This document shows, one piece after another, positions 1-54,025 of a stretch of 64,000 bases of DNA. This DNA is from Centroscyllium fabricii. Its lineage: Eukaryota. The notes beneath the pieces were generated by a model, which worked only from the letters and a program-made list of their open reading frames with translations, made no database searches and was not told where the DNA came from. Made by a program: the position numbers and the translations under genes. The stretch is from assembly GCA_051313645.2 (NCBI GenBank), contig JBNRSN020000045.1, positions 6,324,001-6,388,000 of the forward strand. The letters run 5' to 3'. Each line of letters opens with the position of its first letter. The first letter of the stretch is position 1.

Positions 1-614
1 ATGGATGCAATAAAACCGAGGGTGCCTTTCTCTGTCGATACAGTTTATATTAACACTCAAATGATAGCTGTGGATCTGGTTTCAGTGAGGAAAGGTTAAA
101 CTGTACTATGGACGTGACAGGCACCTCAGATGTAAGAACTAGAACAGCCTTCATATGAGAAGGGAGGAATAGTTTCACCACTTTAGAAAATTCCTATAAT
201 CATGGAACACTTGAATGTTCAATAGCCCATGGACCCACTGTATGACCACTGCAAAGACTACAGTAATAGGAGGAAGAATTGTCCTTGTAATAGCCTCGCA
301 TGGCCAAAAATTACCACAGGTAGAAGATGATTTTAGAATAAATCTACAAGATTATGTTTATATATTCTGATATGACATCCCTGAATTACCTGAAGCATTA
401 ACCGAGCTAACAGGTCAAGGGTGCAGCTTTCACACAATATTATTATAAATTGGTGCAAGGACAGAAATACACTGCTGACGGAATTCCAGACATCTAGATT
501 CAGACCCAATGGTGGGATATAGGAACAAATATGGACATTTCTCCTTTGATTAGAATAATGTCACATATGCTGGTCATAGCCCAACTCAAAGTACTAATAT
601 GCTTATTACTATAG
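1..614 (+). pseudogene. 3' part of decayed env-like ORF of an LTR retroelement (copy 1, truncated by window edge)
   Basis: Aligns with 40405-41012. Ends in QTQWWDIGTNMDISPLIRIMSHMLVIAQLKVLICLLL* (Trp-rich membrane-proximal region plus hydrophobic anchor). Stops and frameshifts upstream. Confidence 0.6.
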
Positions 615-826
615 ACCTGCTAACGGAAACACCTGATGCCTAATACACAATCACGTTTACATATGATCACAACCCAAAACAACTCAGAGTTCCACACATG
701 AGAGGGAACCAATCCATATGTAAGAGTTTAGTTTTGAGGGGTCGGCAAATGCCTCACACTTAATATAGTGATTGGAGAATAAGATTATTGTATGATTTAG
801 AAAAATATTTTTGTATATATTTAAGA

Positions 827-1516
827 TGTGAAAGTGTATGCCAAAAGTATGAAAGCCTGAATAAAATGGAGAATGACTGAGAGAAAAGCAGGATGGGAAA
901 ATAAGCCAATCTGACTGAAACTCGCTCTGTTTTCAGTTACTGAAGGAATGGAATGAAATGCTAAGTTTCTGGGGATTATCAGGAACGTGCTATTCAGTAA
1001 TGTGATAGAAAATTGATAAAATAAGCACCTCTCAGTGATAACATTACAAAATGGACAGATTGTTTGGACAACATCTTTGGAAATTATCTTTGGAAAGAGA
1101 ATATCGAAAGATAACAGGCACTTTGATATGAACAAAGTGTAGCCGAGTGGACTCAACAAGGTCATTAATCATGTACCAGGTTCCGGAGAGCTTTCTGCAG
1201 TCAGTAAGGCACAAGGGAAAACGTGTATAAAGTTACAGATATTGAACACTGAAGGCAGCACGAACCTTGAATCAGAGTTAAAGGACATTCAGTTTAGTGA
1301 TAGCAGCAAGAGGATAAACAGACCGCGCCTCCTTCACTCGGAAGGAATGCCAAAGCTCAAAAGAACAAGACTGTGACTATCTCCTTGTTAATTATTACTT
1401 CTCTGTGCTGTAATTTAACGCTTCATAAACCTGTTTTACATATACACAATATACCTGAACCCAGAGAGATTCGTGTAGTCACTGACAGATTATTATAAGA
1501 GCTTTTTAAACTTACA
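827..1516 (+). mobile_element. Putative 3' LTR of the env-bearing element (copy 1)
   Basis: About 690-bp block downstream of the env-like ORF, bounded by TGT...ACA, with an internal TATAAA. Near-identical block at 41220-41908. Confidence 0.5.
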
Positions 1517-2349
1517 ATATTGAAGGCGGCGTAGTTTTGGGGTCAGGATTAGGTGAATCTCTTTGTTTGCTCTGCGTTAAGGGAGCCGGATGGGACTGTC
1601 ACTAAACGGAAGAAGTAACTCGAGGGCGGGTCAGTGAGTGAGATTGGGAGGGAGAGATGGAAAAAGACATGTGGGAGCTGGAGGAGGGTCAGGAGCTGAG
1701 GGTTTGGGAAAGCTGACAAACTGAAGCAGCGGATGAGGAGACAGAAGATTCAATGCAGGGTGAGGAGAGAGTGGGCTTCACAGGGAGAGACTGCAGCAGA
1801 GTGTGAGAGGAAATCTGATTCATGATCCCCCAGCAGCACAACTCAAACAATGCATCCAACCATTAATTTGTGTGACTTTTCGTGCCAGTGAACAGCAGAC
1901 AGTGTACAAAATATCTTCTATTAATTTACTCAACACATTCAGTTTTTAAAAAGAAATCAATTAATTAAGTCAACCACGTTCATTACTGATTTCCGCTGAC
2001 CCAGTGTGCTTAAAATACAATATTCTAATAATCCATTACAATGAATAAATCACTTATTCTATTCGATAACTACATTTGTACAATCATTGAATCAGAAAAA
2101 TAAACATTCATCGAAACAAACTGGGGAAGTCATAGTGAAATGTTTTCACAATCTGTCAACATGCTAATATCAACTTCAAAGCTAATTTCTTCATCATAAC
2201 TGGACTGGAAGTTTCAGCAGATCATTCGGATGTATTAGTCACACCTCTGCCTCTCTCACTGTCTAGCTTAGGTTTACAAGGACTATAGCAGCAAAGCGAG
2301 GGGATAACTATCAGGATGAACATTCTTGGTCTATTTTCTTGAAAACATA

Positions 2350-2745
2350 TGTTTGATGTGTGACCTACAAGAGGGCTTTAAAATGATGACCGATTTAGAC
2401 AGCGTCGACACAGAGAGAGTGTATATAATGGTGGGAGGAGCTTATATCGAGACCACATCAATATAAGATATTCAACAAGAAAGCAGGCAGGAAATTCTGG
2501 AGAAACATCTTTCCCCAGAGTTTGGTGAGAATGTGGTAATCGCTATAACAGGGAGTGGTTGATGTGACTTGCAGCCATGCATTTCAATGGAGGCTAGATA
2601 AGCACATGAGCGAGAAGGGACCCGAGAGATATGTTAGTAGAGTTAGAGGAGGAAGGATGGGAGGGGGCTCGAGTGGAGAATAAATGCTGGCATGGACTGG
2701 TTGGGGAGGATGTCCTGTTTTTGTGCCTTGTATCATATGTAATCC
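2350..2745 (+). mobile_element. Old, decayed CR1-type LINE 3' end
   Basis: Degenerate match to the ORF2 C-terminus and 3'UTR of the younger CR1 copies in the window. The counterpart in copy B is split by insertions at 42818 and 45446. Confidence 0.55.
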
Positions 2746-29966: not shown

Positions 29967-30868
29967 CTATGATTTAACTATTTTAACAATGAGCTTGAGT
30001 GGGTATTTCACCGCGTTCTTCAGCTCCTCCCTGAATTTAGTCTGGGTCACAGCGTAAATACACGTGTTGGTGCAGGAACTGAGAACCTGCAGCATTCCTG
30101 ATGTGGATTCTGTGATATAAAGAGGGTCAGAGTAGGAGGAAGGATGCATCTTTGTAATTCGCTGATGGATGTAAAATATAACCTGTGTCACCCATAACAA
30201 TATGAAACTGCCGGTTATACTGTAGAGCAAAATGATGGATTTCTTTCGGTTCTCCATCTCTGTGTCCTTGGGATTCTCTCCATCGCTGCGGCCCCGGAGT
30301 CCCCTGCGGACTCGACTGGACAGTAAAATCCGCCTGACCGTCAGAGCATTGAGCAGCAAAATCAGGAAGAACGGGACACAAGGGGTTAAAATGCGGTGAA
30401 ACATCTCAAACGCTGCCCATGCGGGGGAAGAATAGAAACTCGGCTTAATGAAACAATCCCAGGGAACATTATCTATTATATAGCCAGGTTCAACTGTAAA
30501 GTACCAGGGGACAGACTCTAAACAGCCCAGCACACTCACTGTTCCGATCACCACTGCCGCCGTTTTCTCGGTGCAATATTTAGTTTTAAGTTTCTCACAA
30601 CAAATGGCCACAAACCGATCAAAGGTGAAAGCGACTGTGAGCCAGACAGAAACCATCGTGGTTGCAAAAATCAGGCAGATAACGAGACTACACACGGGAG
30701 TAATGAACAGGAATGAAATGGGGAGATAAAACCCACCAATCCACCTCAATATGGGATCAGTGATGACAACCAGGAGATCGGCCGCTGCCATTCCCACCAG
30801 GTAGCGAGTGATACATTTGGAGAGACCGCACTTTCCTCGGGACAGGATCACAATCGCCGCCAAGTTAA
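29967..30868 (-). CDS. Exon 2 of class A GPCR, GPR139/GPR142-like (TM1-TM7)
   Basis: Open frame with hydrophobic helices, MAAAD (TM2), DRF (TM3), PC..I.L.N (TM5), F..LW (TM6) and NTCIY (TM7). Acceptor CTTTTTCTCTCTCTTACAG lies immediately before 30868, and its phase matches exon 1. Confidence 0.95.
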
Positions 30869-30989
30869 CTGTAAGAGAGAGAAAAGGGGAATCAGAGAAA
30901 TGGCTGATCAGACGTGGAGACAAAGCAGCTGATTGACAGGATCTGGGCTGAAAGGTCCACATTTGTTGCTGCATCAAAACTGGCCAACA

Positions 30990-31150
30990 CAGCCAGGAAG
31001 TGACATCATCAAAATGCGAGCAGTTGAGGGCGGGGCTGGTGACCTCATCAAATTCGGACACTGCAGAAAGGAAGTGACATCATCAAAATGCCCACTTTAA
31101 GGGGCGGGGCTGCTGACCTTTCAAAGATTGCCACGGGAGCCAGGAAGTGA
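30990..31150. repeat. Short repeated motif cluster GGAAGTGACATCATCAAAATG / GGGGCGGGGCTG
   Basis: Alternating motifs occur 2-3 times here and again at ~33690-33790 and ~35985-36205. Confidence 0.65.
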
Positions 31151-31329
31151 TCTTGTGGAATCTGTAGATTACTAACCGGAGAGATGTGGTCCACACGCAG
31201 GAACGATTAAACAAAGGTCTTTACTCCAAACACTCGGTCAACAAAACTGACTGGACAATCTCCCGCCACATGTGATGACCGCATCATGCGTTAGCACCTG
31301 GATCCACGCTTCCCGCTCTCTTAAAGTGG

Positions 31330-33557
31330 GACTGCCCCGTACAGTGAAAGATACAACAACAGTTAAGGGGAAAGCCCCGTACAGTGAAAAGATACAATAA
31401 CAGTTAAGCGGAATGCCCCGTACAGTGAAGATACAATAACAGTTAAGGGGAATGCCCCGTACAGTGAAAAGATACAATAACAGTTAAGGGGAATGCCCCG
31501 TACAGTGAAAGATACAACAACAGTTAAGGGGAATGCCCCGTACAGTGAAAAGATACAATAATAGTTAAGGGGAATGCCCCGTACAGTGAAGATACAATAA
31601 CAGTTAAGGGGAATGCCCCATACAGTGAAGATACAATAACAGTTAAGGGGAATTCCCTGTACAGTGAAAAGATACAATAACCTTTAAGGGAATGTCCCGT
31701 ACAGTGAAGATACAATAACAGTTAAGGGGAAAGCCCCGTACAGTGAAGATACAATAACCTTTAAGGGGAATGCCCCGTACAGTGAAGATACAATAACAGT
31801 TAAGGGGAATGCCCCTTTCAATGAAGATACAATAACAGTTAAGGGGAATGCCCCGTACAGTGAAGAGATACAATACCAGTTAAGGGGAAAACCCAGTACA
31901 GTCAAGAGATACAATAACAGTGAAGGGGAATTCCCCGTACAGTGAAAATACAATAACCTTTAAGGGGAATGCCCCGTACAGTGAAGATACAATAACAGTT
32001 AAGGGGAATGCCCCGTACAATGAAGATACAATAACCGTTAAGGGGAATGCCCCGTACAGTGAAGAGATACAATACCAGTTAAGGGGAATACCCCGTACAG
32101 TGAAGAGATACAATAACAGTTAAGGGGAATGCCCCGTACAGTGAAAATACAATAACCTTTAAGGGGAATGCCCCGTACAGTGAAGATACAATAACAGTTA
32201 AGGGGAATGCCCCGTACAATGAAGATACAATAACAGTTAAGGGGAAAGCCCCGTACAGTGAAGATACAATAACAGTTAAGGGGGATTCCCCGTACAGTGA
32301 AGATACAATATCCTTTAAGGGGAATGCCCCGTACAGTGAAAGATACAATAACAGTTAAGGGGGATTCCCCGTACAGTGAAAAAATACAACTAAAGTTACG
32401 GGGAATGGCCCGTACAGTGAAGATACAGGAACAGTTAAGGGGAATGGCCCGTACAGTGAAAAGATACAATAACAGTTAAGGAGAATACCCCGTACAGTGA
32501 AGATACAATAACAGTTAAGGGGAATTCCCTGTACAGTGAAAAGATACAATAACCTTTAAGGGAATGTCCCGTACAGTGAAGATACAATAACAGTTAAGGG
32601 GAGAGCCCCGTACAGTGAAGATACATTAACCTTTAAGGGGAATGCCCCGTACAGTGAAGATACAATAACAGTTAAGGGGAATGCCCCTTTCAATGAAGAT
32701 ACAATAACAGTTAAGGGGCATGCCCCGTACAGTGAAGAGATACAATACCAGTTAAGGGGAAAACCCAGTACAGTGAAGAGATACAATAACAGTGAAGGGG
32801 AATTCCCCGTACAGTGAAAATACAATAACCTTTAAGCGGAATGCCCCGTACAGTGAAGATACAATAACAGTTAAGGGGAATGCCCCGTACAATGAAGATA
32901 CAATAACAGTTAAGGAGAATGCCCCGTACAGTGAAGAGATACAATACCAGTTAAGGGGAATACCCCGTACAGTGAAGAGATACAATAAAAGTTAAGGGGA
33001 ATGCCCCGTACAGTGAAAATACAATAACCTTTAAGGGGAATGCCCCGTACAGTGAAGATACAATAACAGTTAAGGGGAATGCCCCGTACAATGAAGATAC
33101 AATAACAGTTAAGGGGAATGCCCCGTACAGTGAAGAGATACAATACCAGTTAAGGGGAAAACCCAGTACAGTGAAGAGATACAATAACAGTTAAGGGGAA
33201 TGCACCGTACAGTGAAAAGATACAATAACAGTTAGTGGGATTGCCCCATACTTTGAATATACAATAACAGTTAAGGGGAATGCCCCGTATAGTGAAAAGA
33301 TACAATAACAGTTAAGCGGAATACCCCGTACAGTGAAGATACAATAACAGTTAAGGGGAATGCCCCGTACAGTGAAGAGATACAATACCAGTTAAGGGGA
33401 ATACCCCGTACAGTGAAGAGATACAATAACAGTTAAGGGCAATGCGCCGTATAGTGAAAAGATACAATAACAGTTAGTGGGATTGCCCCATACTTTGAAT
33501 ATACAATAACAGTTAAGGGGAATGCCCCATATAGTGAAAAGATACAATAACAGTTAC
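31330..33557. repeat. 39-41-bp minisatellite, about 55 copies, in GPCR intron
   Basis: Unit GTTAAGGGGAATGCCCCGTACAGTGAAGATACAATAACA. Variant runs recur about 872 bp apart (31651 vs 32523). Confidence 0.97.
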
Positions 33558-33794
33558 ATTTGTGCCTAACACCCTAGTAGAATATCCGAAGGATGTTATG
33601 AGTCTGTTAATGAGAATTGTGCACATAAATGTTATATACAGCTACAAACAACGGATGGTGGTCCTGTCACAATATTATCGAAAAGGCTGCCGTGGGGAGG
33701 GAGGCTGCTGACCTCATCACAAATGGGCACCGCCTCCAGGAAGTGCAATCAGCAAATCGGCCGTAGTTGGGGGCACAGCAGCTGACATCCTCAC

Positions 33795-35700
33795 ATAAGA
33801 ATATGTGAAATAAGAGCAGGAGTAGGTCATTCGGTTCGCGAGCCTGTTCCGCCATTCAATAAGTTAATGGCTGACCATTGAACTCAACTCCACTTTACCG
33901 CCCCATCTCCATATCACTTGATTCCCCTAAAGGCCCAAAATATGTCTATCGCAGCCAGGAATATAATCAACAACTCTGCATTTACACCCCGCTGGGGCGG
34001 AGAATTCCAAAGATTCACAACCGTCTGAGTGAAGAAATTCCTCCTCATCTCAATCATAACTGGCTGACTCTTTATCCTCAGACTCTGCCCGCTAGTTCTA
34101 GACGCACCAGCGAGGGAAACAACCCTTCAGCATCTACTCTGTCAATCTCTTTCAGATTTTTGTAAAGTTCAATGAGATCACATCTCATTCTTCTAAACTC
34201 CAGATCATGGGATCATTCTGCACAATGTCTCCTCATAGGACATCCTTCTCATCCCAGGGATCAATCTAGTGAACCTTGGTTGCACCGTCTCCAAGGCAAG
34301 TATATCCTTCCAAATATATGGAGCCCAGAACTGTGCCCAGTATTCCAGGTGTGGTCTCACCAAGGCCCTATAGATTTGTAGCAGGACTTCCTCCCCCCAT
34401 TAGTCCACCCATTGTAATTACAGGATAATACACCATTGGTCTTCCTTATTTCTTACTGTTCCTGTAGGCTGGATTTAAGTGTTTCTTGCACGAGGCAAAA
34501 TAAATATCTCTGAACACCAACACTGGAAATTTTCTCACCATTGAGAATATATTCTGGTTTTCTATTCTTGCTACCAAATTGAAATATCTCACATTTCCGA
34601 CATTATGCTCCATCTCTCAACTTACGGCCTACTCAATTAGTTTATCTATAACCATTTGCAGGCACGTTGTGTTCTCCTCACGGCTTACTGTCCCACCTAG
34701 TTTTTTATCATCAGAAAAGTTGGATACCACACTCGGTCCCTTCATCTAGGTCATTAATGTGGATTGGATGGAAATAGCTGGAGCCCCAACACAGATCCTT
34801 ACGGCATCCCACTAGTACCAGCCTGCCAACCGCAAAAAGATCAGTTCATCCCGACTCTCTGTTTTCTGTCCGTTACCCAATCCTCTATCCCGCTACCCAA
34901 ACAGCCCGAATCGTGTGTAATAGTTTTTTATTTGTAAACATATCGATTGCCTTAACGGAATCCAAAACAAATAGATCAACCTGTTCCCCTTTATCGACCC
35001 TGTTGGTTAGATCTTCAAACGACTCCAATAAAGTTATCAAACATAATGTCGCTTTCATAAAACCAGTTTGATTCTGCCCAGTCATGTTATGATTTTCTAA
35101 GTGACTCGATACCACCTCCTTAACAATGGGTTTCAGCAGATTCCTGACCATTGATGTCAGGCTGACTGGCCTGTCGTTCCTTGTTTTTTTATTATTTCAC
35201 TCCCTTCTAGAATAGCAGCGTTGCATTTGGGACGTTCCCATCCGCTGGGGACTCTCCAGAATCTAGGGAATTTTGGAAGACAACATCAATGCATCCAATA
35301 TCACTTCAGCAACCTCTTTTAGAACCCTAGCCGCTGATTATCCACTGATGAGCTTTAATCCATGTTTTCCAGTCTATCTCTGCAAACTCGCCCCTCATAC
35401 CTAAGTAATTGGCTTTATTTCTGTTTAAGAATATTGTATTAGACTTAGACAAGTCACTCTTAAAATCAATGTAAAATTCTATTATATTATGATCACTCTG
35501 CCCCAGAGTGTTCTTTAATATGAGATTGCTAATTAACCCTTTCTCTTTAAGCGATATGAGATATGAAATAACCTGATCCCTGGTTGGTTCCATGACTTAT
35601 TGTTCTACGAAACTGTCCTGGAAACGTTGCATGAAATCTTCCTCCACACTAACTTGCCAATTTGTTGTGTCCAGTTTATATGAAGATTAAAGAGCCCAAG
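33795..35700 (-). mobile_element. Decayed CR1 LINE
   Basis: CR1 3' tail at 33795-33870, RT remnants, and an endonuclease C-terminal LGQSDHNIIEF motif at ~35500. Confidence 0.82.
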
Positions 35701-36419
35701 ATTATTGCATTTCCTTTCTTGAAAGCTCCTATCAAAGCCCTAGTTATTCGATTCGCCAGGACACTGGTCCTAACCTGGTTTATGCAGAGCCATTCCCGAT
35801 GGAACAGCTCAATCCTACCACAGTGCGGCTGTAAAAACAATACACCATTATTTGAGCCAGGCATTTACCTCTCTGATCTGCTTGTCCCTATGCCTATTTA
35901 CGAGTGGCTCAGGAAGCAATCGAGAGATTCTGCTTTTAATTTAGATCAATAATGACCGCTGACTCCTTGATGATACATTAGCAAAATGTCCGTAGTTGGG
36001 GGCATGGCTGGTGACTTCATCAAAAGTGGATGCGACCAGGAAATTGCATCATCAAAATGGTCGCTGGGCAAGAGGCAAGGCTGGAGTCCTCCTCAAAACT
36101 GGCCACCACCGGTACGGAGCAACATCATCAATATAGCCAATGTTGCGGGTGGAGCTGGTGAACTCGGCAAAAATGGACTCCGCCACCAGGAAGTGACATA
36201 AAAATGACCGATAATAAACGGACCAGGGCAGCAATATCTGGCAGGGAAATGCTTGCAACACAAGGGATTATATTAAGCGTAGTACGGGGCATGGCAGCTC
36301 CGCATTTTGGCGTGCTCCTCCTGTGAACTGTGGGGTGACCGGAAGACAGATGCAGATACTAGGGCATGTAACATTGGAAAATAACACAACATTAAAACTA
36401 CAACCAGGTAGCCAAAGAC

Positions 36420-36725
36420 GGTTACAAATCGCGATAGATCATATGGACAACGTGAGCAAGTTGGTAGCCATTAACCTAGGCAAATAGCGTGGAGAAATAA
36501 AGCGATATTATGAAAAGAGGCAAAACCATTTGAGTATGTCATTGGAGGCCGTGTAATTTTAGAAAACTCCTCACCAAAAAAACACACACTCGAGATAAAT
36601 TGGACGGGTCCTCATACCAGAATAGATCAATTAACTATTGCTGTGTATCTACTGAATGCCCATGGGGTCCGAGAGGAGAACCTAAACTGAAATGTTTCCA
36701 TATCAATCAGATGAAAACTGTTCAG
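36420..36725 (+). pseudogene. Integrase C-terminal remnant of the env-bearing LTR element
   Basis: Broken frames read KRYYEK / PFEYVIGGRVILENSSPKKHTLEINWTGPHTRIDQLTIAVYLL / FHINQMK, a GPY/F-type integrase tail. Confidence 0.6.
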
Positions 36726-37049
36726 AATTAAGATGATATATTTTGGTTTACCCACAGGTTATAGATGTGTCTCCATATGCTGAAACTGAAAAATGGATGT
36801 GCAGTCTGTTCTCCGAAGGTAACAAAACTTTTCCATTGTCATTAACATCTGTACACTGGACGAAGGAGGCAGATGCGCCTTAATCTCCATCTAAGGAATG
36901 GAACATCGAAATGTTGGCGGACATAAACAATCAAAGAACGATAACAGTAGCAAATTACTGTGAATGCTGGAAATCTGAAATAACAACAGGAAAAGCTGCG
37001 AATATGCAGCAGGACAGGCGGCATCCGTGGAGAGAGAAACAGAGTTAAT

Positions 37050-38775
37050 GTCTTCACAGAGGAGGACACAAATAGCCTCCCAGAGATGTCGGGAAACATA
37101 GGGACTAATGAGAGGGAGGAACTGAAAGAAATCAATATCTCTAAGGATATGGTGTCCGGGAAATTGAAAGGATTAAAGGCCGACAAATCGCCAGGGCCTG
37201 ATAATCTGCATCCTAGGGTGCTTAAGGAAGTGGCCCTGGAGATATCAGATGCTTTGAGGATCATTTTCCAGAACTCAATAGACTCTGGAATGGTGCCCAG
37301 GGATTGGAGGGTAGCTAATGTTACCCCACTATTCAAAAAGGGGGGTAGAGAGAAGGCGGGGAATTATAGACCGGTAAGTCTTACATCAGTTGTGGGCAAC
37401 ATGCTAGAGTCCATTATTAAGGACGTAATAGCAGATCACTTGACTAAGAGTGATGGGATCGGACACAGTCAACATGGATTTACAAAAGGTAAATCGTGCT
37501 TGACTAATCTATTGGAATTCTTCGAGGATGTAACCGATAAAATAGATAGGGGAGAGCCAGTAGATGTGGTTTATCTGGACTTCCAGAAAGCCTTTGACAA
37601 GGTCCCTCATAGGAGATTGGCAGGAAAAATTAAGGCTCATGGGATTGGGGGCAAGGTATTGGCGTGGATAGAGAACTGGTTGGCAGATAGAAAACAGAGA
37701 GTTGGGATAAACGGGTTGTTTCCTGATTGGCGGGCAGTGACTAGTGGGGTACCACAGGGGTCGGTACTGGGACCCCAGCTGTTCACAATATATATTAATG
37801 ACCTGGATGAGGGAATTGGATGTAACATCTCCAAATTCGCAGATGACACTAAGCTTGGAGGGGGAGTATGCTCTGAGGAGGATGTCGGGAAGCTCCAGAG
37901 TGACCTGGACAGATTGGGGGATTGGGCGAACACATGGCAAATGCACTATAATGTGGATAAATGTGAGGTTATCCACTTTGGTAGCAAAAACAGAAAGGCA
38001 GAGTATTATTTGAACGGCAATAGATTGGGAGATGGGGAAGTGCAAAGAGATCTGGGTGTTCTTGTGCACCAGTCACTGAAGGTGAGCATGCAGGTGCAGC
38101 AGGCGGTCAAAAAGGCAAATGGTATGTTGGCCTTTATATCAAGAGAGTTTGAGTATAGGAATAGGGATGTCTTGCTGCAGCTGTATAAGGTCTTGGTGAG
38201 GCCCCACCTTGAGTATTGTGTGCAGTTTTGGTCGCCGCATCTGAGGAAGGATGTTCTTGCCATGGAGTGAGTACAGCGACGATTCACCAGGCTGATACCT
38301 GGGCTGGCAGGAATGACTTATGAGGAGAGATTGTGTAGTCTGGGCTTATACTCGCTGGAGTTTAGAAGATTAAGAGGGGATCTCATCGACACTTATAAAA
38401 TTCTGTCAGGCTTGGACAGGTTAGATGCAGAAAGGATGTTTCCGATGGCCGGGGAGTCGAGAACCAGGGGGCATAGTCTAAGGATAAGGGGTAAGCCTTG
38501 TAGGACTGAGATGAGGAGGAAATTCTTCACACAGAGAGTGGTGAACCTGTGGAATTCCTTGCCACAGAGGGCGGTGGAGGCCGGTTCATTGAATATATTC
38601 AAGAGGGAACTGGATATATTTCTTCAGGCTAAAGGGATTAAGGGATATGGGGAGAAGGCAGGGACTGGGTACTGAACGTGTAAGATCAGTCATGATCTCA
38701 TTGAATGGCGGAGCATGCTAGAAGGGCCGAATGGCCTACTCCTGCTCCTATCTTCTATGATTCTATGATTCTATG
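37050..38775 (+). mobile_element. Young 5'-truncated CR1/HER1-like LINE
   Basis: RT ORF 37086-38675 broken by a single in-frame TGA at 38268-38270. (TTCTATGA)n tail. Very similar to 18174-19998. Confidence 0.96.
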
Positions 38776-38993
38776 TTTCAGGCCAGTGACCCTCCATCAG
38801 AACTGGAAAAAGCTGGGCATGTAGCAGATATTTAGCACGAGCAGAGCCTGGGGGGGGGGGGTCGTGGTCTAGGAGGGGAGGGAGGAATCCCTGACCCCAT
38901 TTTTCAGGCTGTATGATATTGCAATTCTCCTTTGCAACATTTTATCATTCCTGCCTCTTACATAAGCACAATCTGTTATTTGAATTCCTTCCT

Positions 38994-39028
38994 TTTCTGA
39001 TGAAGGTTTCCAATCCTGAAACGTTAAC
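38994..39028 (+). ncRNA. Putative minimal hammerhead ribozyme core
   Basis: CTGATGA-AGG tttccaat CCT-GAAA-CGT-T-AAC with palindromic ACGT stem III. Stem I is partly decayed. Confidence 0.5.
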
Positions 39029-39093
39029 GCTGTTTCACTCTCCACGGATGCTGACTGGGCTGCTGAGTATTTCCACCATTTTCTGTTGTTATT

Positions 39094-41012
39094 AAAGAAC
39101 TATAACGGATCATCCGAGACGTATGAGGGGGATGTTCCAGTTTGGATCAGAAATAGTACAAAAGATAATTTAACAAAACCTTACTTGACGGGTTGTTGTA
39201 CATTGCAGGAAAAGGTGTACAATTGGGAAATAAAAGAAGGATGTGGTGTGTGTACCAGGAGCGGAATAAGGAACAGGAGAGGCCCAAATGTGTGGAAATT
39301 CCCCAGGAAAATAATGGAATCTGGGAAAAGTTACAAAAATCAAATCAGGGATTAGAAGCTTCGGAAAGTATGGGATCTTTACAACTATGCTGACCTCGGT
39401 GGTGAAGCAAACTTTCCCGCCAGTATTCTTGTAGTTAGACAACAATTGTCATCGGCTTTAAAAATCAGGATGTTGATTGGCCTCATATTTCCAAAAATGA
39501 TGTAATGTTTACGTCAGCAGGATATGAGATTCCCGCAGACCGTATAGAGATCACGCTGACAGAACGTAAATCATGTATGATGACTTTTAAACATGACAGA
39601 AATGATAGAGATTTAGGGAATACATATAGCATTTAGCATAATGGAATTCGACAATGCAGTAACTGAATGTGTAGGGGACGATGGGCATGTCTATAGTTCT
39701 AAGCATACAGCCTATTATACAGCAAGTCAGTCAGAACCACGAGAGGGTGTACCCGAGGAACAATGTCCCCAATTGTCATCAGGTCCTGGGAGCGGTCTTG
39801 CAATTATACCCACCTATAAAGCAGTGTATCATCAAGTAATACCAGAAGTGCTCCCTGTTATACTAAATTTAACAGAGGCAATAATTCCAAAATGTTGCCC
39901 TGACAAAACAGCACAACTAACTCAGAGATGCTGCAGTAGGTTTTTAATTAGAACTGAGAAAATGCGACCTTAACTTTCAGTACAGAGGAAGCAGACATGC
40001 CTCTGATCAAGCAGCCCATAATGACGTATGCATTAGTTACGGGAATTGGCTGATTGAACAAACTTGGGAAAGCCTTCATACCATCAATCAGGGACGTCTC
40101 TCCACTTTGGTCACTAATAAATATTTAACAGGGCTATCCAATCACTGTGATGATGCAGAACCATGTAAGATCCAGAGTTTGATTAGGACCCACCCTGTCA
40201 AGCACGAATGCCACAAGGTATGGAGTCAAAGGTTGATGGGACCAATACTACACATTCCTAATCTAATGACTCGAACTGGCCCTAAAACTTTATTTAGGAT
40301 AGAGAATATATGAGCAGTACAGGGGAATAATATTGCCCGATTTCTCACGGCACTACAATGGCAAGTCCAATTAGGAAAACTAACATGGATTGAACCAAAC
40401 TTCCAGGGATGCAATAGAACCGAGGATGCCTTTGTCTATCCATACAGTTTATATGACCAATCAAAGAATAGCTGTGGATATGGTTGCAGTGAAGAAAGAT
40501 TAAACTTTACTATGGAAGTGCCAGGCCCTTCAGATATAAGAATTAGAACAGCCTAAATATGAGAACGGAGGAATTGTTTTACCACTTTAGAAAACTCATG
40601 TAGTCATGGGACACTTGAATATTCAACAGCCTATGGACACACTGTATGAGCACTGCAAAGACTACGGTAATAGGAGGAAGAATTGTCCTTGTAATAGCCT
40701 CAAATGGCCAGAAATTACCACAGGTAGAAGATAATTTTAAAATAAATCTAGAAGATTATGTCACAAGATTTGGATCTGACATCCCTGAACTACCTGAAGC
40801 ATTAACCGAGCTAATAGGTCAAGGGTGTACCACTCAACAACTTTATCATACATTGGTGCAAGGAAATAAATAAATAGCTGAGGATATTCCAGACATCTAG
40901 ATCCAGACCCAATGCTGGGATATAGGAACAAATATGGAAATTTCTCCTTGGATTAGAATAAGTTCACATGTGCTGGTCCCAACTAAAATTACTAATATGC
41001 TTACGACTATAG
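39094..41012 (+). pseudogene. Decayed env-like (class I fusion protein-like) ORF of LTR element (copy 2)
   Basis: Broken frames with N-glycosylation sequons and Cys clusters (EVLPVILNLTEAIIPKCCP; LHTINQGRLSTLV; ILHIPNL...LFRIENI; EPNFQGCNRTEDAF..P...SCGYGC) and a C-terminal hydrophobic anchor. Lies between the integrase tail and a putative LTR. Confidence 0.6.
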
Positions 41013-41219
41013 ACCTGCTAACGGAAGCACCTGATACAAAATCACGTTAAAATATGATCACGACCCAAAAAACCTCAGAGTTACACACATGAAAGGGAAC
41101 TAATCCATATGTATGAGTTTAGTTTGGAGGGGTCGGCAAACGCCTCACCCTCAATGTAGGGATTTGGAGAATAAGGTTATTTGTATGATTTAGTAAAATA
41201 ATTTTGTATATATTTAATA

Positions 41220-41908
41220 TGTGATATATATGCCAAACGCTTGTAAGCCTGAATAAAATGGAGAATGACTGAGAGAAAAGCAGAGTGGGAAAATAAGCCA
41301 AACTGAATGAAACCTGCTCTGTTTTCAGTTACTGAAGGAATGGAATGAAATGCTAAATTTCTGGGGACTATCAGGAACGTGCTATTCAGTAATATGATAG
41401 AAAATTGATAAAATAATCACCTCTCAGTGATAACATTACAAAATAGACAGATTGTTTGGACAACATCTTTGGAAATTATCTTTGGAAAGAGAATATCTAA
41501 AGACAACAGGCACTTTGATATGAACAAAATGTCCCTAGTGGACTCAACATGGTCATTAATCATGTACCAGGTTCCGGAGAGCTTTCTGCAGCCAGTGAGG
41601 CACAAGGGAAAACGTGTATAAAGTTACAGATATTGAACACTGAAGGCAGCACGAACCTTGAATCAGAGTTAAAGGAAATTCAGTTAAATAAAAGCAGCAA
41701 GAGGATAAAGAGACCGCGCCTCCTTCACTCGGAAGGAATGCCAAAGCTCAAACGAACAAGACTGTGACTCTCTCCTTGTTAATTATTACTTCTCTGTGCT
41801 GGAAGTTTAATGCTTCATAAACCTGTTTTACATATATACAATATACCTGTACCCAGAGTGATTCGTGCAGTCACTGACAGATTATTATAAGAGCTTTTGG
41901 AAGTTACA
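41220..41908 (+). mobile_element. Putative 3' LTR of env-bearing element (copy 2)
   Basis: TGT...ACA-bounded block matching 827-1516. Confidence 0.5.
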
Positions 41909-42817
41909 AGACTGAAGGCGGGGAAGTTTGGTGACAGGGGGAGTTGAATTTAGTTTGATGCTCTGGGTTAAGGGAGCCGAAAGTGGCTTTCACTAAACGG
42001 GAAGAAGTAACTTGGGGGCGGGTCAGTGAGTGAGATTGGGAGGGAGAGATGGAAAAGGACATGTGGGAGCTGGAGGAGGGTCAGGAGCTGAGGGTTTGGG
42101 AAAGCGGACAAACTGAAACAGCGGATGAGGAGACAGAGGATTCAATGCAGGGGGAGGAGAGACTGGGCTTCACAGGGAGAGACTGCAGCAGAGTGGGAGA
42201 GGAAATCTGATTCATGATCCCAGCAGCACAACTCAAACAATACATCCAACCATTAATTTATGTGGCTTTTCGTGCCAGTGAACAGCGCACTATGGACAAA
42301 ATGTCTTAAATTAATTTAATCAACACATTTAATTAAAAAAATAAACTATATTAATTAAATCAAATACGTTCTTTACTGAATTCCGCTGATCCAGAGTGCT
42401 TAAAATACAATATTCTAATAATACATTACAATCAATAAATCACTGATTTTATTCTATAACTACATTAGTCCAATCATTGAATCAGAAATGTAAACATTCA
42501 CCAAAACAGACTGAGGAACTCAACGTGATAAGATTTCACAAACTGCCAACATGATAATATCACTTTCAAATCTCATTTCCACATTATAACTGGACTGGAA
42601 GTTTCAGCAGATCATTGGAAAGGATTAGTCACAGGGCAGCCCAGCCTCTCTCGCCGTCTGTCTTAGATTTACAATGATTCTAGCAGCAAACTGACGATAT
42701 ACTATCAGGGTGAACTGTCTGGGTCCCTTTTTTTGAAAAGGTAAGTTTGATGTGTGACCTACTAGAGCGCTTCAAAATGATGAACGACTTTGAAATCGTA
42801 GAGACAGTGAGAGTGTA

Positions 42818-45133
42818 ATTCAGCAGAGGAGGACGAAGGGCTTACTTAAGGCAGGGAAAATAGAATATGAAAGGAAGCTTGCAGAGAACATTAAAACTGA
42901 CTGCAGAAGCTTCCATAGATATGCAAAGAGAAAGAGGTTAGTAAAAACAAACGTAGGTCCCCTGCAGTCAGAATCAGGGGAAGTCAAAAGGGGGAACAAA
43001 TAAATGGCAGATCAATTGAACAAGTACTTTGGTTCGGTATTTACTAATGAGGACACAAACAACCTTCCGATCATAAAAGGGGTCAGAGGGTCTAGTAGAA
43101 AGGAGGAGCTGAGGGGAATCCTTATTAGTCGGGAAAATGTGTTGGATAAATTTATGGGGCTGAGTGCTGATAAATTCCCAGGGCCTGATGGTCTGCATCC
43201 CAGAGTACTCAAAGAGGTGGACTTGGAAATAATGGATGCATTGCCGATCGTTTTCCAACATTCCATAGACTCTGGATCAGTTCCGATGGAGTGGAGGGTA
43301 GCTATTGTAATCACACTTTTAAAAAAAGGAGGGAGGGAGAAAACAGAGAATTACAGCCTGACATCGGTAGTGGGTAAAATGATGGAATCAATTATTAACG
43401 ATGTCATTGCAGTCCATTTGGAAAGTGGTGACATGATAAGTCCAAGTCATCATGGATTTGTGAAAGGGAAATCATGCTTTGCAAATCTTCTGGAATTCTT
43501 TTAGGATGTTTCCAATAGAATAGACAAGGGAGGTCCAGTGGATGTGGTGTACTTGGAATTTCAGAAGGCTTTCGACCAGATCCCACACAAGAGATTGGTG
43601 TGCAAAGTTAAAGCACATGGGATTGGGGGTAATGCATTGACGTGGATTGACAGCTGCTTGGCACACAGGAAACAAAGAGTAGGAGTAAATGGGCAGTTTT
43701 CAGAATGGCAGGCAGTGACCAGCGGGAAATTGCAAGATTCGGTGACGGAGACCCAGCTGTTTACATAATATATTAATGATTTGGACGCAGCGATTAAATA
43801 TTGTATCTCCAAATTTGTGGATAACACTAAATTGGAAGGCAGTGTGAGCTGCGAGAAGGATGCGAAGAGGCTAGAGTGATTTGGACAGGTTAGGTGAATG
43901 GACAAATATATGACAGATAGAAGTACAATGTGGATAAATGTGAGGTTATCCACTTTCGTGGTAAAAATAGAAAGACAGACTATTATCTGAATGGGGACAG
44001 ATTAGGGAAATCGGAGGTGCAACGAGACTTGGGCGTTATGGTACATCAGTCACTGAAGGTGGAAATGCAGGTACAGCAGGCAGTTAAGAAAGCAAATGGC
44101 ATGGAAACATAGAAACATAGGAGCAGCAATAGGACATTCGGCCTTTCTCCGCCATTCAATGTGATCATGGATAATCATCCAAACCCAGCACCCTATCCCT
44201 GCCTTCTCCCCATACCAGTATCGAGCATGCACCGAAATATATCCCACCCTATCCCCATAACCCCACATATTCAATTCTCTTAACAGTATGGTTCAATTTA
44301 TCATGGCCAATAAACCTAACCCACACATATTTGGACTGTGGGAGGAAACCGGTGCAGTCGGAGGAAACCCACACAAACACGGGGAGAATGTGCAAACTCC
44401 ACACAGATGGTACCCGTGGCTGGATTTGAACCCGGGTTTCTAGTACTGTGAGGCAACAGCGCTAACCACTATGCAACCGTACCGCCACATGTTGGCCTGC
44501 ATGGCGAGGGGATTTGAGTACAGGAGTAGGGAGGGTTTGCTACAGTTGTACAGGGACTTGGTGAGGCCACACTTGGAGTATTTTGTGCAGTTTTGGTCTC
44601 CTAACTTGAGGAAGGCCATTCTTGCTATTGAGGGAGTGCAGCAAAGGTTTACTAGATTGATTCCCGGGATGGCCTGACTGAAACATCAAGAAAAACTTGA
44701 TCAACTGGACTTGTATTCTCTGGAGTTCAGAAGAATGAGTGGGGATCACATAGAAACGTTTAAAATACTGACCGGTTTAGACAGGTTAGATGCGGGCGGA
44801 ATGTTTCCAATGTTGGGCAAGTCCAGAACCAGAGGGCACAGACTAAGGAAAAGGGGTAAGCCATTTAGGGCAGAGAGGAGGACAAACTACTTCACCCAGA
44901 GAGTGTTGAACCTGTGGAATTCTCTACCACAGAATGTTGTTGAGGCCAGTTCACTAAATATATTCAAAATGGAGTTAGATGTAATACTTACAACTGGGGG
45001 ATTAAGGGACATGGCGAGAAAGCAGGAATGGGGCACTGATGTAGCATGTTCAGGCATGAACTTATTGTATGGCGGTGCAGGCTCGAAGGGCCGAGTGGTC
45101 TAATCCTGCACCTATTTTCTATGTTTCTATGTA
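42818..45133 (+). mobile_element. CR1/HER1-like LINE, decayed, specific to duplication copy B
   Basis: RT motifs across broken frames and a TTTCTATG tail. The empty site in copy A at ~2420 reads AGAGTGTATATAATGG. Confidence 0.92.
44104..44487 (-). mobile_element. HE1-like SINE nested in CR1
   Basis: tRNA-like head (B-box GGTTCAAATCC), V-domain and CTATGTTT tail. CATG duplicated at 44100-44103 and 44488-44491. Confidence 0.9.
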
Positions 45134-45445
45134 TACAATGGTGGGAAGAGCTTAGTTAGAGACCACATCAATATAAGATATGCACCAAGAAATCAGGCAG
45201 GAAATTCTGGAGAAACTTCTTTACCCAGAGATTGGTGAGAATGCGGAAATCGCTATAACAGGGAATGGTTGATGTGACTTGCATTCGTGCATTTTAAGGG
45301 AGGCCAGATAAGCGTATTAGCGAGAATGGACTAGAGAGTTATGACAATAGAATTAGTTGAGGAAGGATAGGAGGGGGCTCCAGTGGAGAATAATTGCTGG
45401 GTTGGAATAGTTGGGCCGAATCTCCTTTTTCTGTGCCGTATCATA

Positions 45446-45761
45446 GAATAGAATCATAGAATCCCTACAGTGCAGATAGAGGCCATTTCGGCCCATCGAG
45501 CCTGCACCGACACATATCCCACCCTATCCCCAAAACCCCCACAAATTTAACTCCCCAAAAACTAAGGGTCAATTAAATGGCCAAACAACCTAAACCACAC
45601 ATCTTTGGACGGTGGGAGGATGGCTGGGCACCCGGAGGAAACCCACTCAGACATGGGGAGAATGTGCAAACTCCACACAGATAGTCACCCGAGGCCGGAT
45701 TTGAACCCGGGTCTCTAGTGCTGTGAGGCAACAGTGCTAACCACTATGCCACCGTGCCGCC
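45446..45761 (-). mobile_element. V-domain SINE, specific to copy B
   Basis: Head GGCGGCACGGTGGCATAGTGGTTAGCAC, B-box GGTTCAAATCC and TTCTATGA tail. Absent at the equivalent site ~2735. Confidence 0.88.
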
Positions 45762-46878
45762 CATATATCCTATGCAATGCTACCTATCTATCTTTTTCTA
45801 AGTCTCGATCTCTATTAATCCCCACTCTAGTTCTCCTTCTCTTTCCATTTCTCTAGTGCTGCGCTCTATCTCTCCGCATCATCTCCTATTTCTTGCTCAA
45901 TAGATTTGTTCATGTCATCCCAACATGCTGCGCCTGCATTATGTTCACTATTCCCCTTTTCAATGACTCTATTCTGATAATCAGTAGCTTCGTTGCTGAG
46001 GCCCCTTTGAATAGCTGTGTGTTCCTGCACATCACCCAAATCTTCAGCTGATCACCTGCATTGATCTGCAGTGCATACAATAAACAGAACCGAATATCTC
46101 TGCCAGAAACAAATGACAATAATTGAAGTTACTTCTCCTGTAATTTAAAGGTCCAGCATTAGATGGCGTGGTTGTTCAAAATCACCGCTGCTAATTATAA
46201 TCTCCATAGCAACAGAAGGGCTCCTGATTGCAACAGATACAGTGGAAACTATTGCAACATAACCTCAAAATATTTCTTTTTATGATAAATTCCAGTGTCA
46301 GCAAGTGAATCCACCCACACTGAATCAGAGAAGGAGATGTGAAGGAGTCAGCAACAACCGCAGTTCAGTCGCCAGCCTTCTGAAGCGGAGTCAGATACAC
46401 ACAGAATGAAAAGATATTTCACAACGGTGAGAACCAATCACACAATTAAATCCAAGATAAACTGAATCACGTTGCTGGGGAGGGAGGACATCGAGGCGGT
46501 GAGCTGTCTCAGTATCAATCACACAAAGCACAATTAGGAATAAAGATTAGATGACAGGTGTGTTCCACAACATAAATCTGACAACAGCTCCTGATGGTCT
46601 GATACCCGCTCTGAGCCCAGATTCCTGAGTAACCTGGTTCCAATAGATTCAGTGCAGGGAATGATCCAGTAACATTGCTACGGTTGAAACCACAAAGATC
46701 ATTACAGATATAACAATATTCCTACAAGACCACACGAGCAGAAACTGAGGACATCCCATCATTCAGCTGCTGGAACAGAACAGCCGGTTGTGGAAAACAT
46801 TCATCGAGTTAATCATTCCCAATGCAGCAGCACACTCAACACCGATTTTCACCATTGACAGTTGAGATACCCGCTTAC

Positions 46879-46948
46879 CGGTAACACCAACGGCTGCAAT
46901 AACAGGATAGTAAATCGCTTCTATTTGTAAGATGACAGGATAGCCCAT
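46879..46948 (-). CDS. Exon 1 of GPR139/GPR142-like GPCR (joins 29967-30868)
   Basis: Encodes MGYPVILQIEAIYYPVIAAVGVT+G then a GTAAG donor. G+TT gives Val in frame with exon 2 and completes TM1 (YYPVIAAVGVTVNLAAIVIL). Confidence 0.92.
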
Positions 46949-48360: not shown

Positions 48361-48876
48361 TCCTCGCTGTCAGAAGGTGTCTCTGTCTATCTGTCTATGT
48401 ATCCGTCGAGGTTTGTTTCTCTGTTTCTGACTTTCTCTTTCTATCTATTTCTGGCTGTCTCTCTGTTTGTTTCTCTGTCTGGGTCCTTGTCTGACTCACT
48501 CTGTCTCTATCATTGTCACTCTCTCTCTTTCTCTCTCGCTCTGTCCCACTCTCTCTCTCTCTCCGTCTGTCTCTGCACCTCTCCTTCTCTGTCTATGTCT
48601 GTCTCTGGATGACTGTCTCTGTCTGGCTGTCTCTGGATTCCTGTTTTCGTGTCTCTGTCTCTTTATTTCTGACACTCTATATCTGTCTTTGTCTGTCGTG
48701 GTTGTATGTTTCCCTCTGTCTGTCTAGCACAGTCTGTCAGTATCTGTCCCTCTGTCTCCGTCTGTCTGATTTTGTCTGTCTACCACTGTCTGGTATTGTC
48801 TGTCTGTATGTCTCTGTCTAATTCTATCTGTCTTTCAATCTCGCTCTCTGGCTCTCTCCCTCTGTCTCTCTCGCTT

Positions 48877-49480
48877 TGTAAGGGTTTGTGATAGGATGCA
48901 AATGCAGAACACCGGAAGTCCGTTTTAAGAAATAAAATATCCTTTTATTTCTAAGTATCAATCTATATCTACATCTATACAAAATCTTTACTTTCATTTG
49001 TGTAACAGAAAACAAACAAGTCTATGATCCCGAGTACAGGTAAATAGTAATACACAAGTCCAAACCAGAGTCCAGGTGGTAAATAGAAACAAGGCCAGAA
49101 ACCAGGTGCCGATATTCTCCAAGTAAATCCACACTTCACGAAGAGATGAATCCTCAGTACAGAGTTCAGCAATAATCCAATACGAACAGGAACAGGTATA
49201 AATCCAATTCGACAGGAACAGGTATCAATCCAATTCGACAGGAACAGGTATAAATCCAAAATTCGACAGGAACAGGTATAGCAAAACAGAACACAGAATC
49301 AAGTGACAGGAAATAACGATCTGGCAAAGACCAAGAGCCAGCAGGAAGCTTATAACCAGTTCCAGCTCAATTGCTTGATTGGAGCTGGCCAATCCGGTGT
49401 AAGACATGATAATAGAGATAAAAGCCAATAAACAGAAAAAGAAGCATCTAGAAACTTAAAGGGACAGTCCACCCATGACA
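48877..49480 (-). repeat. 3' LTR of Gypsy element
   Basis: Direct repeat of 54026-54629. Contains about 4 tandem ~25-bp units AATCCAATTCGACAGGAACAGGTAT. Confidence 0.97.
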
Positions 49481-49566
49481 GAACCCCCACCTTAAGGGAC
49501 GACTCCTGACGTCCCCAAAAACCCCAACAGCCGGAATCGGGTGGGCGGAGGGGTGTGGGGGAGGGA

Positions 49567-52500
49567 CTAACAGTCCTCGGGACCCTCGTCAACTACCATC
49601 TCCTCATCGGACTGAAAAGGATCGTCCTCCTCAGCCGATTCAATCACCTCGTCATCAGCTGCCACTCCCGTGTCCAGGGCTTCCTGAATCAGTACGGGGC
49701 CGAAACCCTGTCTAGACTTCCTAGGGATCGCCGTTTTCTTATTCGGCTGGCCGGGGTGTTTCCTGTGAAACTCAGCAATGAGTTGAGGGTCCACAATATG
49801 GCGAGCAGGAACCCAGGACCTCTCTTCCGGTCCATACCCCTCCCAGTCCACCAGGTACTGAAGTCCCTTCCCTCGACGACGGGAGTCAAGTAGACGACGA
49901 ACCGTGTAGACTAACCCACCGTCGAGCATACTAGGAGGTGGAGGAGGTGCGGCAATAGGTACCAAGGCACTCTCCCGAGTAGGCTTGATGTGCGAAACGT
50001 GGAATGTGGGATGGACCCGCATGGATTTAGGGAGCATGAGTCTCACCGCAGCAGGGTTGATGATTTTCAGCACCTCGAAGGGTCCGATAAACCGGGGAGC
50101 AAGTTTCTTTGATTCTACTTGTAGAGGCAGGTCCTTGGTGGAGAGCCAAACCTTCTGCCCAACCCGATACTCCGGAGCCTCTGAACGACGACGGTTGGCA
50201 GCAGCCGAGTATCGATTCGCTGAGCGAAGCAACGAAGTCCGCGCCTGATCCCATGTTCTGTGACAACGTTGAATGAAGGCCTGGACGGACAGACAGGATA
50301 CCTCCTTCTCCAGGTCCAGAAACAATGGAGGCTGGAATCCATATGCGCACTGAAAAGGAGAAAGTCCGGTAGCGGAGCTGGTCAGCGTGTTGTGCGCATA
50401 CTCTACCCACAGAAGTAACTGGGACCAGGAAGAGGGATTCTTGGAGACCATGCACCGAAGAGCCTTCTCCATCTCTTGGTTCATCCTCTCCGACTGTCCA
50501 TTGGACTGAAGATGAAATCCCGACGACAGACTGACAGTGGCCCCGATCAGATTACAAAACTCCCTCCAGAATACTGATGTGAATTGAGGACCTCGATCGG
50601 AGACCACGTCCAACGGAAGCCCATGAAGCCGAAACACGTGCTGTAACATGAGTTCCGCTGTTTCCTTCGCAGAGGGCAGCTTTGGTAGGGGTATAAAATG
50701 GGCCATTTTACTAAATCTGTCTACCACAGTCAGGACCGTGGTCAATCCCTTGGATGAGGGTAGTCCGGTGACAAAGTCCAGGGCTATGTGGGACCAAGGA
50801 CGATGTGGTATCGGTAGAGGTTGTAGAAGACCAGCTGGAGCCCGACGAGACGACTTGTGTTGGCTACAAACCGGGCAGGCACTAACAAACTCCCGGGTAT
50901 TCTCCTCCAGCGTGTCCCACCAGAACCTCCGCAAAATAACCTCCTTGGTCCTTTGTGCCCCAGGATGGCAGGAAAACTTGGAAGCATGAGCCCACAGAAG
51001 AACATCAGGTCGAATGTTTGTGGGTACAAACAGACGGTCGGGAGGACAACCGCTGGGCCCACCCTGATCCCCCACAGCAGCTCTCACTCTCTCCTCGATC
51101 TCCCATGTGACCGCAGCAATAAGGCAGGGAGCTGGCAGAATATGGTCTGATCCTGGAGCAGAACCCTCCTCCTTCAGGAACAGGCGGGATAGAGCATCGG
51201 GCTTGACGTTGCGGGAACCAGGCCTGTAGGAGAGAGTGAAATTGAACCTTGTGAAGAAGAGAGACCATCTAGCCTGGCGTGAATTTAGCCTCTTTGCCAT
51301 GCGTATGTACTCCAAGTTCTTGTGCTCAGTCCAAACAAGGAACGGCAGCTTGGTCCCCTCCAGCCAATGGCGCCACTCCTCTAAGGCCATCTTGACCGCT
51401 AGTAATTCCCGGTTCCCGATATCATAATTCATCTCCGCCGGGGACAGGCGCTTGGAGAAATAAGCACATGGATGTAGTTTCTGATCAGAAGTCGACTTTT
51501 GAGACAAGAGAGCTCCTACTCCCACATCAGATGCATCCACCTCCACGACGAACTGTCGATCCGGATCAGGTACCTGGAGAATGGGAGCAGAAGTGAACCG
51601 GGACCTGAGTTCCTGAAAAGCCTCCTCTGCGGCGAGAGACCACCTGAACGGCACCCTTGATGAGGTAAGCGCCGATAACGGTGCTGCTACCGTACTGTAG
51701 CCACGAATAAATCTACGATAAAAATTTGCAAAGCCCAGAAACCATTGTAATTGTTTGCGTGTCTCTGGACAAGGCCAAGACGCAACAGCTGTCACCTTTT
51801 CTGGGTCCATCCGCACACTCCCTTGCGCAATGATATATCCCAGGAAGGAGACGGTAGAGACATGGAACACACATTTCTCAGCTTTAACGAATAAAGAGTT
51901 CTCCAATAGTCGTTGTAAGACCGTCTGAACGTGGTGCACATGCTCCTCCTGAGATTTAGAAAAGATCAGGATGTCATCCATACAGACGAACACGAATCGA
52001 TTGAGCATGTCACGAAGGACGTCATTGACCAGGTCCTGAAATACCGCCGGGGCGTTGGTCAACCCGAACGGCATAACGAGATATTCGTAATGTCCAGAGG
52101 GGGTGTTGAAGGCGGTCTTCCACTCATCGCCCTCCCGTATCCGGACCAGATGGTAAGCGTTGTGAAGATCCAATTTAGAAAATATGGTTGCCCACTGTAG
52201 CAACTCAAACGCTGAAGAGATAAGAGGAATAGGATACCGGTTCTTCACAGTAATATCTTTCAGTCCCCTGTAATCGATACATGGTCGGAGCGAACCGTCC
52301 TTCTTTCCCACGAAAAAGAATCCAGCCCCCGCTGGTGATGAAGAAGAACGGATGATCCCCGCCGCCATCGAGTCACCGATATAGGTCTCCATGGCTTCCC
52401 TCTCAGGTGCTGATAACGAATACAGACGTCCCTTTGGTGGGGAAGAACCTGGCAACAATTCAATGGCACAATCATAGGGGCGATGTGGAGGTAGCGACGT

Positions 52501-54008: not shown

Positions 54009-54025
54009 GATTGGCCAGATCGTTC

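Follow-up and report, generated by a model that had tools for sequence, protein, structure and literature searches.

In a stretch of 64,000 nucleotides from Centroscyllium fabricii (contig JBNRSN020000045.1, positions 6,324,001 to 6,388,000; hereafter the window), the intron of a G protein-coupled receptor (GPCR) gene holds a dead, 5′-truncated provirus, the 3′ half of an endogenous retrovirus (ERV). This provirus probably descends from a family that groups with snakehead retrovirus (SnRV; class III, clade Huo) and whose envelope protein (Env) is predicted to be a class Ib fusogen resembling the F protein of paramyxoviruses. Its ancestor would have made Pol by read-through of the gag stop codon, an in-frame stop being seen in a related young family, and would have translated Env from a spliced mRNA. 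Cleavage at an RQKR-type furin site would have exposed a fusion peptide with heptad repeats after it, and a transmembrane subunit of about 400 residues would have refolded like F1. After one integration, the 5′ half and the segment with cleavage site and fusion peptide were lost and nested repeats gained, and the provirus was copied as a passenger when the GPCR gene cluster was duplicated.

Anatomy of the provirus in the window

A first-pass annotation of the window had read, in this order, an integrase tail, a splice acceptor-like motif, a broken env and a TG...CA block. All of these were found at the places given (Table 1), with the motifs WTGPH at 36601, HINQMK at 36699, LPVILNL at 39851, ILHIP at 40245 and LFRIEN at 40290. 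The end of env, which had been read as WWD followed by a hydrophobic anchor, is different: the window has CWD (40913) and the membrane anchor is broken. The terminal block is a true long terminal repeat (LTR), since a provirus at another locus has it at either end, and the homology of six independent loci stops at its 3′ end, 41908-9. On the other side, homology among independent copies starts at 36336, in the last part of the integrase core, which moves the start of the element upstream of the 36420 first annotated; fuller copies extend upstream into the integrase domain rve. The 17-mer of the putative env splice acceptor is found in 9 of 15 related loci with at most 3 mismatches. The window copy has no 5′ LTR, gag or reverse transcriptase (RT); the sole upstream LTR in the window is that of the duplicate at its left end, described below.

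Alignment to a related open env placed 39737-39925 on residues 283-346 (44% identity) and the part beyond the deletion junction on residues 453-795 (27-42%). Residues 347-452, which comprise the furin site, the fusion peptide and the first heptad repeat, have no counterpart in the window; this segment is likewise missing from 8 of 8 duplicate-type loci (evidence from L029 being weak), and all 14 of the other loci have it. The window copy is unable to encode a working Env and is inert as a virus.

The surface subunit is interrupted by a nested insert, annotated in the first pass as Penelope/CR1. The insert itself is real, being flanked by a 13-bp target duplication (36933-45 and 39094-106), and the empty site is seen in other copies of the retrovirus. 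Its inner part contains an RT and is, we presume, a CR1 element. At the duplicate locus L002 the outer repeat is present without this long interspersed nuclear element (LINE). The name Penelope for the outer repeat was not confirmed, Rfam giving no match in the insert.

Table 1. Positions of the provirus, its parts and the host gene in the window
Feature	Position	Strand	Remarks
Element, overall	36336-41908	+	3′ half of ERV, antisense to GPCR gene
Integrase core end and C-terminal domain, degenerate GPY/F	36336..36730	+	Motifs; carries stops and frameshifts; element begins here in this copy
Putative env splice acceptor	36741..36757	+	17-mer ending in CAG; use presumed
env 5′ part (surface subunit), broken	36758..36945	+	Joined to 39091 onward in insert-free copies
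Nested insert, foreign to the retrovirus	36946..39093		Outer repeat of ~430 bp interrupted by LINE RT fragment (~37049-38780)
Remaining surface subunit, to conserved Cys helix, broken	39107..39975	+	Alignment to related open env
Deletion junction	39975..39985	+	~300 bp lost: furin site, fusion peptide, first heptad repeat
Transmembrane-subunit ectodomain (Cys-rich, predicted F1-like) and broken anchor	39985..41030	+	Alignment, motifs
3′ LTR, 754 bp, TGTAG...TTACA	41155..41908	+	Boundary shared by independent loci; paired in a provirus
Duplicate of 40407-42817 (env end, LTR ~763-1516, shared flank)	3..2423	+	87.6% identity over 2430 nt
Host GPCR exon 1, ATG to GT donor	46879..46948	-	Host gene of the element
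Host GPCR exon 2, rhodopsin family	29967..30868	-	7tm_1, E 6.5e-22; acceptor

Copies of the family elsewhere in the genome

Independent copies of the family were found at 72-87% DNA identity. One provirus (L047/L051/L052) has an RT, an integrase, a 4-bp target duplication and paired LTRs that differ by a Kimura two-parameter distance (K2P) of 0.059 across 815 nt, so that the linkage of genomic copies to pol and to paired LTRs, which the first-pass annotation had set as a test, was observed. Two rates from PMC4422223 would date this LTR pair to about 13-134 million years, a range set by the choice of rate. Another copy, L058, encodes a CCHC finger, and its primer site matches the genome's own tRNA-Lys(CTT) at 17 of 18 bases; L061 has a tether-type domain (PF17917, E 6.8e-13) followed by an RNase H (PF00075, E 1.7e-9), hence a double RNase H. 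The Retroviridae layout LTR-gag-pro-pol-env-LTR, together with a target duplication and a primer site for a tRNA, is found in L047/L051/L052 and L058, of which the window copy keeps the 3′ half only.

A related young family (L031-L038, L050, L066), whose env is 27-48% identical in pieces to that of the window's family, has gag, an in-frame TGA, a pol with protease, RT, tether, RNase H and integrase in this order, and an env with an RQKR site and an anchor. Gag and pol lie in one frame with a stop between them in both young-family copies read; the window's own family is too decayed for such a reading. In a listing of 131 matches, drawn from 5244 candidates, open env frames of the young family are up to 863 codons long. 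One of its LTR pairs stands at a K2P of 0.003, and 2 of 4 copies are without most of pol, gag and env being kept. A third, decayed subfamily (L048, L049, L114-L127) has the same type of Env. Long pol frames beside env in L014, L019, L021, L027, L029, L041, L043 and L045 turned out to be nested Gypsy insertions (21-31% identity) and not the pol of the family.

Placement of the family by its reverse transcriptase

SnRV is the closest named reference to the family RT by identity. In an alignment of about 140 columns, the family RT shares 54-56% of residues with that of the young family, 49% with SnRV, 36% with lokiretroviruses, 31-34% with gamma-type RTs and 24-30% with Gypsy RTs. It carries the motif LPQ, and SnRV has LPQG at the same site. 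The SnRV reference was a 10,688-nt record that fits SnRV by published length and RT motif, and 7 of 16 foamy-type records served as foamy reference; the foamy-type, gamma/epsilon-type and caulimo-type records are labelled after their motifs. As lokiretrovirus reference we used three RTs nearly identical to rows in the supplement of PMC7947760, where the published lokiretrovirus RTs have CPFG or MPFG in place of the LPQG of SnRV.

Three RT trees were built, the first with 59 rows, the second after dropping 23 of 62 rows that were redundant or long, and the third after dropping 5 more and adding the 7 foamy RTs (41 rows). In the 41-row tree, the family fell in a clade of 12 rows together with elements of frog, coelacanth and turtle (support 99/93), and this clade was sister to SnRV (89/86), whose position was unresolved in both trees without foamy rows. 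Retroviridae (100/98) contained the family, and lokiretroviruses (100/100) were sister to Retroviridae, as published. We consider, with good confidence, that the family belongs to the SnRV clade (class III, clade Huo). SnRV-related ERVs have already been published from cartilaginous fish (PMC4422223; PMC6001957).

Several points weigh against this placement. The window being without RT, the lineage was read from one decayed copy, L047, with about 145 residues of RT and DNA 79-85% identical to the window; the trees were without ERV-L, Ovex1, CmiERV, fish foamy-like elements and class II retroviruses or lentiviruses; and the branch joining the clade to SnRV is under the star threshold. An alternative is that the family forms a separate class III lineage, either fish foamy-like or an unnamed clade, to which SnRV would be a distant neighbour. 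Such a lineage would fit with the dependence of the SnRV branch on the foamy rows, with the Lys primer site and with the foamy Env that heads the PDB fold matches (see below). Yet grouping with the seven tetrapod foamy RTs was rejected in an approximately unbiased (AU) test (p 0.00022; fish foamy-like elements stood outside the tree), the family has a CCHC Gag, gag and pol lie in one frame in the related young family, and the Env is homologous to that of SnRV. We regard a separate lineage as unlikely.

Our initial reading of the element was as a lokiretrovirus, based on the NYNRIN-like names of its pol relatives and on the double RNase H, and it was overturned by the RT motif and the trees. 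The first-pass annotation had also guessed at an elasmobranch lokiretrovirus, which would be the first from a cartilaginous fish. These automatic names, the double RNase H and an F-like Env with an RXKR site do fit the description in PMC7947760. Against this stand an RT motif unlike the published lokiretrovirus rows, the low RT identity and the AU test, which rejected grouping with lokiretroviruses for the family (p 0.00013) and for the L047 row alone (p 0.0035). The best genome match to a lokiretrovirus RT was 41-42% among 150 scored. We consider this reading very improbable. Two RTs of the genome, L095 and L096, are 41% identical to lokiretrovirus RT, the bulk lying at 33-36%.

The other guess of that annotation, an undescribed enveloped Gypsy lineage, here taken as errantivirus-like, fared no better. 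F-type env genes are widespread in invertebrate Gypsy elements (10.1101/2023.10.26.564294), and rows 3 and 8 of the Atlas comparison described below are Baculo_F/Gypsy env clusters. But the family has the tether with a PF00075 RNase H, its RT lies within Retroviridae, a grouping with Gypsy and caulimoviruses was rejected (AU test, p 0.0014), and the Gypsy pols near env are the separate nested insertions mentioned above. Of the readings considered, this one appears to us the least credible.

Sequence features and homologues of the envelope protein

The copies of the family and the young env have a furin site, a fusion peptide, a heptad repeat, a long Cys-rich ectodomain and an anchor; the site and the peptide are those deleted in the window. 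The transmembrane ectodomain has about 400 residues. The CX6CC motif, the hallmark of gamma-type envelopes, occurs neither in the family env alignment nor in any plus frame of 36301-41200 of the window, as the first-pass annotation had claimed for the latter.

Among 1.84 billion proteins, 57 Env homologues, mostly unnamed, were picked up with a profile; 9 of the 10 that were looked up carry names, and their sources are sharks and frogs. The named close relatives of env come from skate and sawshark. A 36-row Env profile matched SnRV Env with an HH probability of 94% (E 1.3e-7, 350 columns), the furin site and cysteines being in register, and in a Smith-Waterman comparison none of 300 shuffles reached the score. 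Judged by these alignments, SnRV Env is a homologue of this Env family. Pulling the other way, shallower Env profiles gave no significant match to SnRV Env (E 0.26 and 0.31), and the score of a hidden Markov model was reached by 42 of 300 shuffles.

At the N-terminus of a young Env (L036:1356-3725), residues 96-174 gave a weak Ig_3 match (E 0.23), and one shark homologue (P0086) is named Ig-like domain-containing. Three shark host proteins, a Niban-like, a cadherin-related and an Fbxo15 isoform (P0002, P0003, P0111), are annotated with pieces of the family's Env, which may reflect exonisation or errors in gene models.

Predicted fold of the envelope protein

We compared Env with known fusogens by three methods. 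In Atlas, which uses language-model features, F0 headed the ranking both with the young env as query (0.93, 202 of 256 features) and with SnRV Env (0.94). In a Foldseek search of the PDB with a model built from a 49-row alignment, rows 1-10, and 33 of the 41 rows listed, were foamy Env, F or coronavirus S2, the best row being a foamy Env. Against a library of viral structures, five matches reached E ≤ 0.001; all are viral glycoproteins, feline foamy Env among them, and their TM-scores are 0.1-0.2. The wide VIA search had 9 rows in which at least 120 residues aligned, and 8 of these were F or foamy Env, the best being F of Newcastle disease virus (Z 7.2 and an rmsd of 3.7 over 129 residues). 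The VIA matches joined a strand before the cleavage site with the helices and the strand after it (model residues 47-287), as in F. The Atlas features and the fold matches support the proposal of the first-pass annotation that this is an LTR element with an F-like, non-gamma envelope, and we consider it likely that the fold of Env is that of a class Ib, F-like fusogen.

The case is weakened by several observations. The query of Atlas and the model used in the structure searches were the related young env, and not the env of the window; Atlas flagged the result for SnRV Env as a weak recognition. The models were poor, with pLDDT of 32.3 (single-sequence model of a family copy) and 43.8 (49-row alignment model). 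No PDB row of Foldseek reached E ≤ 0.001, and TM-scores of the fold matches were 0.1-0.24. The VIA search gave no row at Z 8 and mostly helical hairpins, an unrelated one of which was its best match (Z 7.9). At the level of sequence, Pfam found no fusogen family in the window fragments or the young env, only 1 of 36 Env family members matched the Pfam family F0 (PF00523; E 0.056), and four sequence or profile searches of env (phmmer, hmmsearch) found no F among PDB sequences. The comparison with fusogens that the first-pass annotation had proposed gave weak structural matches concentrated on F and foamy Env, and no significant match to F by sequence.

The low pLDDT and TM-scores and the missing sequence match could mean that the lineage is correct and Env merely looks like F because long helices precede a Cys-rich beta region, its fold being different. 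However, three distinct methods all point to class Ib proteins, and the VIA matches join elements from both sides of the cleavage site in the manner of F. A different fold is for us a minor possibility, slightly less probable than the separate lineage considered above.

Comparison with known retroviruses and implications

SnRV shares with the family an LPQ-type RT, a zinc-finger Gag and a homologous Env without CX6CC. An in-frame stop ends gag before pol in SnRV (TAG) and in the related young family (TGA), and read-through of this stop is stated for SnRV (PMC2717909). The two differ in the Env frame, which has 790-863 residues in the family versus 1134 in SnRV, the family having a short tail, one furin site and no 3′ open reading frame that we could see, and in the Lys primer site of the window's family. 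The SnRV-related class III ERVs of clade Huo, which include lineage I of the elephant shark CmiERV, are known from cartilaginous fish (PMC4422223, PMC6001957). By its published description, chicken Ovex1 (PMC2717909) has an SnRV-like Gag-Pol with in-frame stop and a degenerate GPY/F, and its env (ORF3) is large, without CX6CC, CKS17 or a clear signal peptide; unlike that of the family, its Gag is without zinc finger. Lokiretroviruses (PMC7947760) share the double RNase H and, on our prediction, an F-like Env with RXKR site, fusion peptide and coiled coil, but differ in RT motif and tree position, and they were absent from all 6 cartilaginous genomes screened in that paper. Foamy Env, assigned to subclass Ib (PMC11468914), is the best solved-structure match of the model and has a long transmembrane subunit; the family differs from foamy viruses in its RT, for which the foamy grouping was rejected, in its CCHC Gag and in the single gag-pol frame read in the young family.

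An F-like Env is already known for lokiretroviruses (PMC7947760) and foamy viruses (PMC11468914). We found none described for SnRV or the class III clade in the literature searched, subscription papers and the supplements of two preprints lying outside the search; the accessible parts of PMC12193657, 10.1101/2024.03.17.585361, 10.1101/2023.10.26.564294, PMC13709493, PMC10435555, PMC9040795, PMC12440569, PMC11089739 and PMC12287698 contain no such statement. The clade itself is known; with the F-like Env predicted here from models, it would be the third retrovirus branch with such an entry protein.

For the origin of retroviral Env, PMC7947760 lists four scenarios without choosing among them, and PMC9040795 prefers independent gains. 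Should the SnRV clade prove F-like as well, the fusogen would be common to three deep branches of retroviruses, and a single ancestral gain would be the simpler reading. We tentatively put forward, at somewhat less than even chances, that a class Ib F-like Env is used throughout the SnRV clade, by the elements of sharks, rays and frogs as well as by SnRV, and that the F-type fusogen was the ancestral retroviral Env, later replaced by the gamma/beta type in other orthoretroviruses, SnRV being an extant orthoretrovirus that would still enter with it. Because SnRV is extant and the structure of its Env can be solved, the question is directly testable. The F-like reading also supplies a fold hypothesis for the 57 Env homologues and would explain why Env-based screens miss these elements.

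Duplication of the host locus and neighbouring sequences

Since exon 1 (46948-46879) and exon 2 (from 30868) of the host gene both lie on the minus strand, the element stands antisense within the GPCR intron, in agreement with the location first annotated. The second env and LTR sequence at the left end of the window, taken in the first pass for another copy of the element, does exist. It lies in the intron of a paralogous GPCR gene (exon 1 at 3832-3763) and shares 900 bp of flank with the main copy; because flank and host gene are shared, it is a duplicate and no separate insertion. When 40 of 614 candidate matches to 41050-42000 were scored, every one continued past the LTR end into the flank, which indicates one old insertion duplicated along with the host gene cluster. 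In older duplicates env diverges by 12-17%. In the duplicates L015 and L017, Pfam found no retroviral domain in the 5 kb that precede the integrase end.

In 3 of 5 old sets of duplicates, the LTR (5.9-7.8%) has diverged less than env (12-14%) or the flank, which may be due to gene conversion or constraint; in the other two its divergence, 13.1 and 17.2%, is not lower.

The window regions 29967-46948 and 3763-3832 belong to tandem two-exon genes of rhodopsin-family GPCRs, part of a much-duplicated cluster, which we take to be GPR139-like. A separate chromodomain Gypsy element lies on the minus strand at 48871-54319, with LTR segments 97% identical and open gag and pol frames. The window also has tandem arrays of 39-bp and 49-bp units, at 31328-33556 and 14870-15849.

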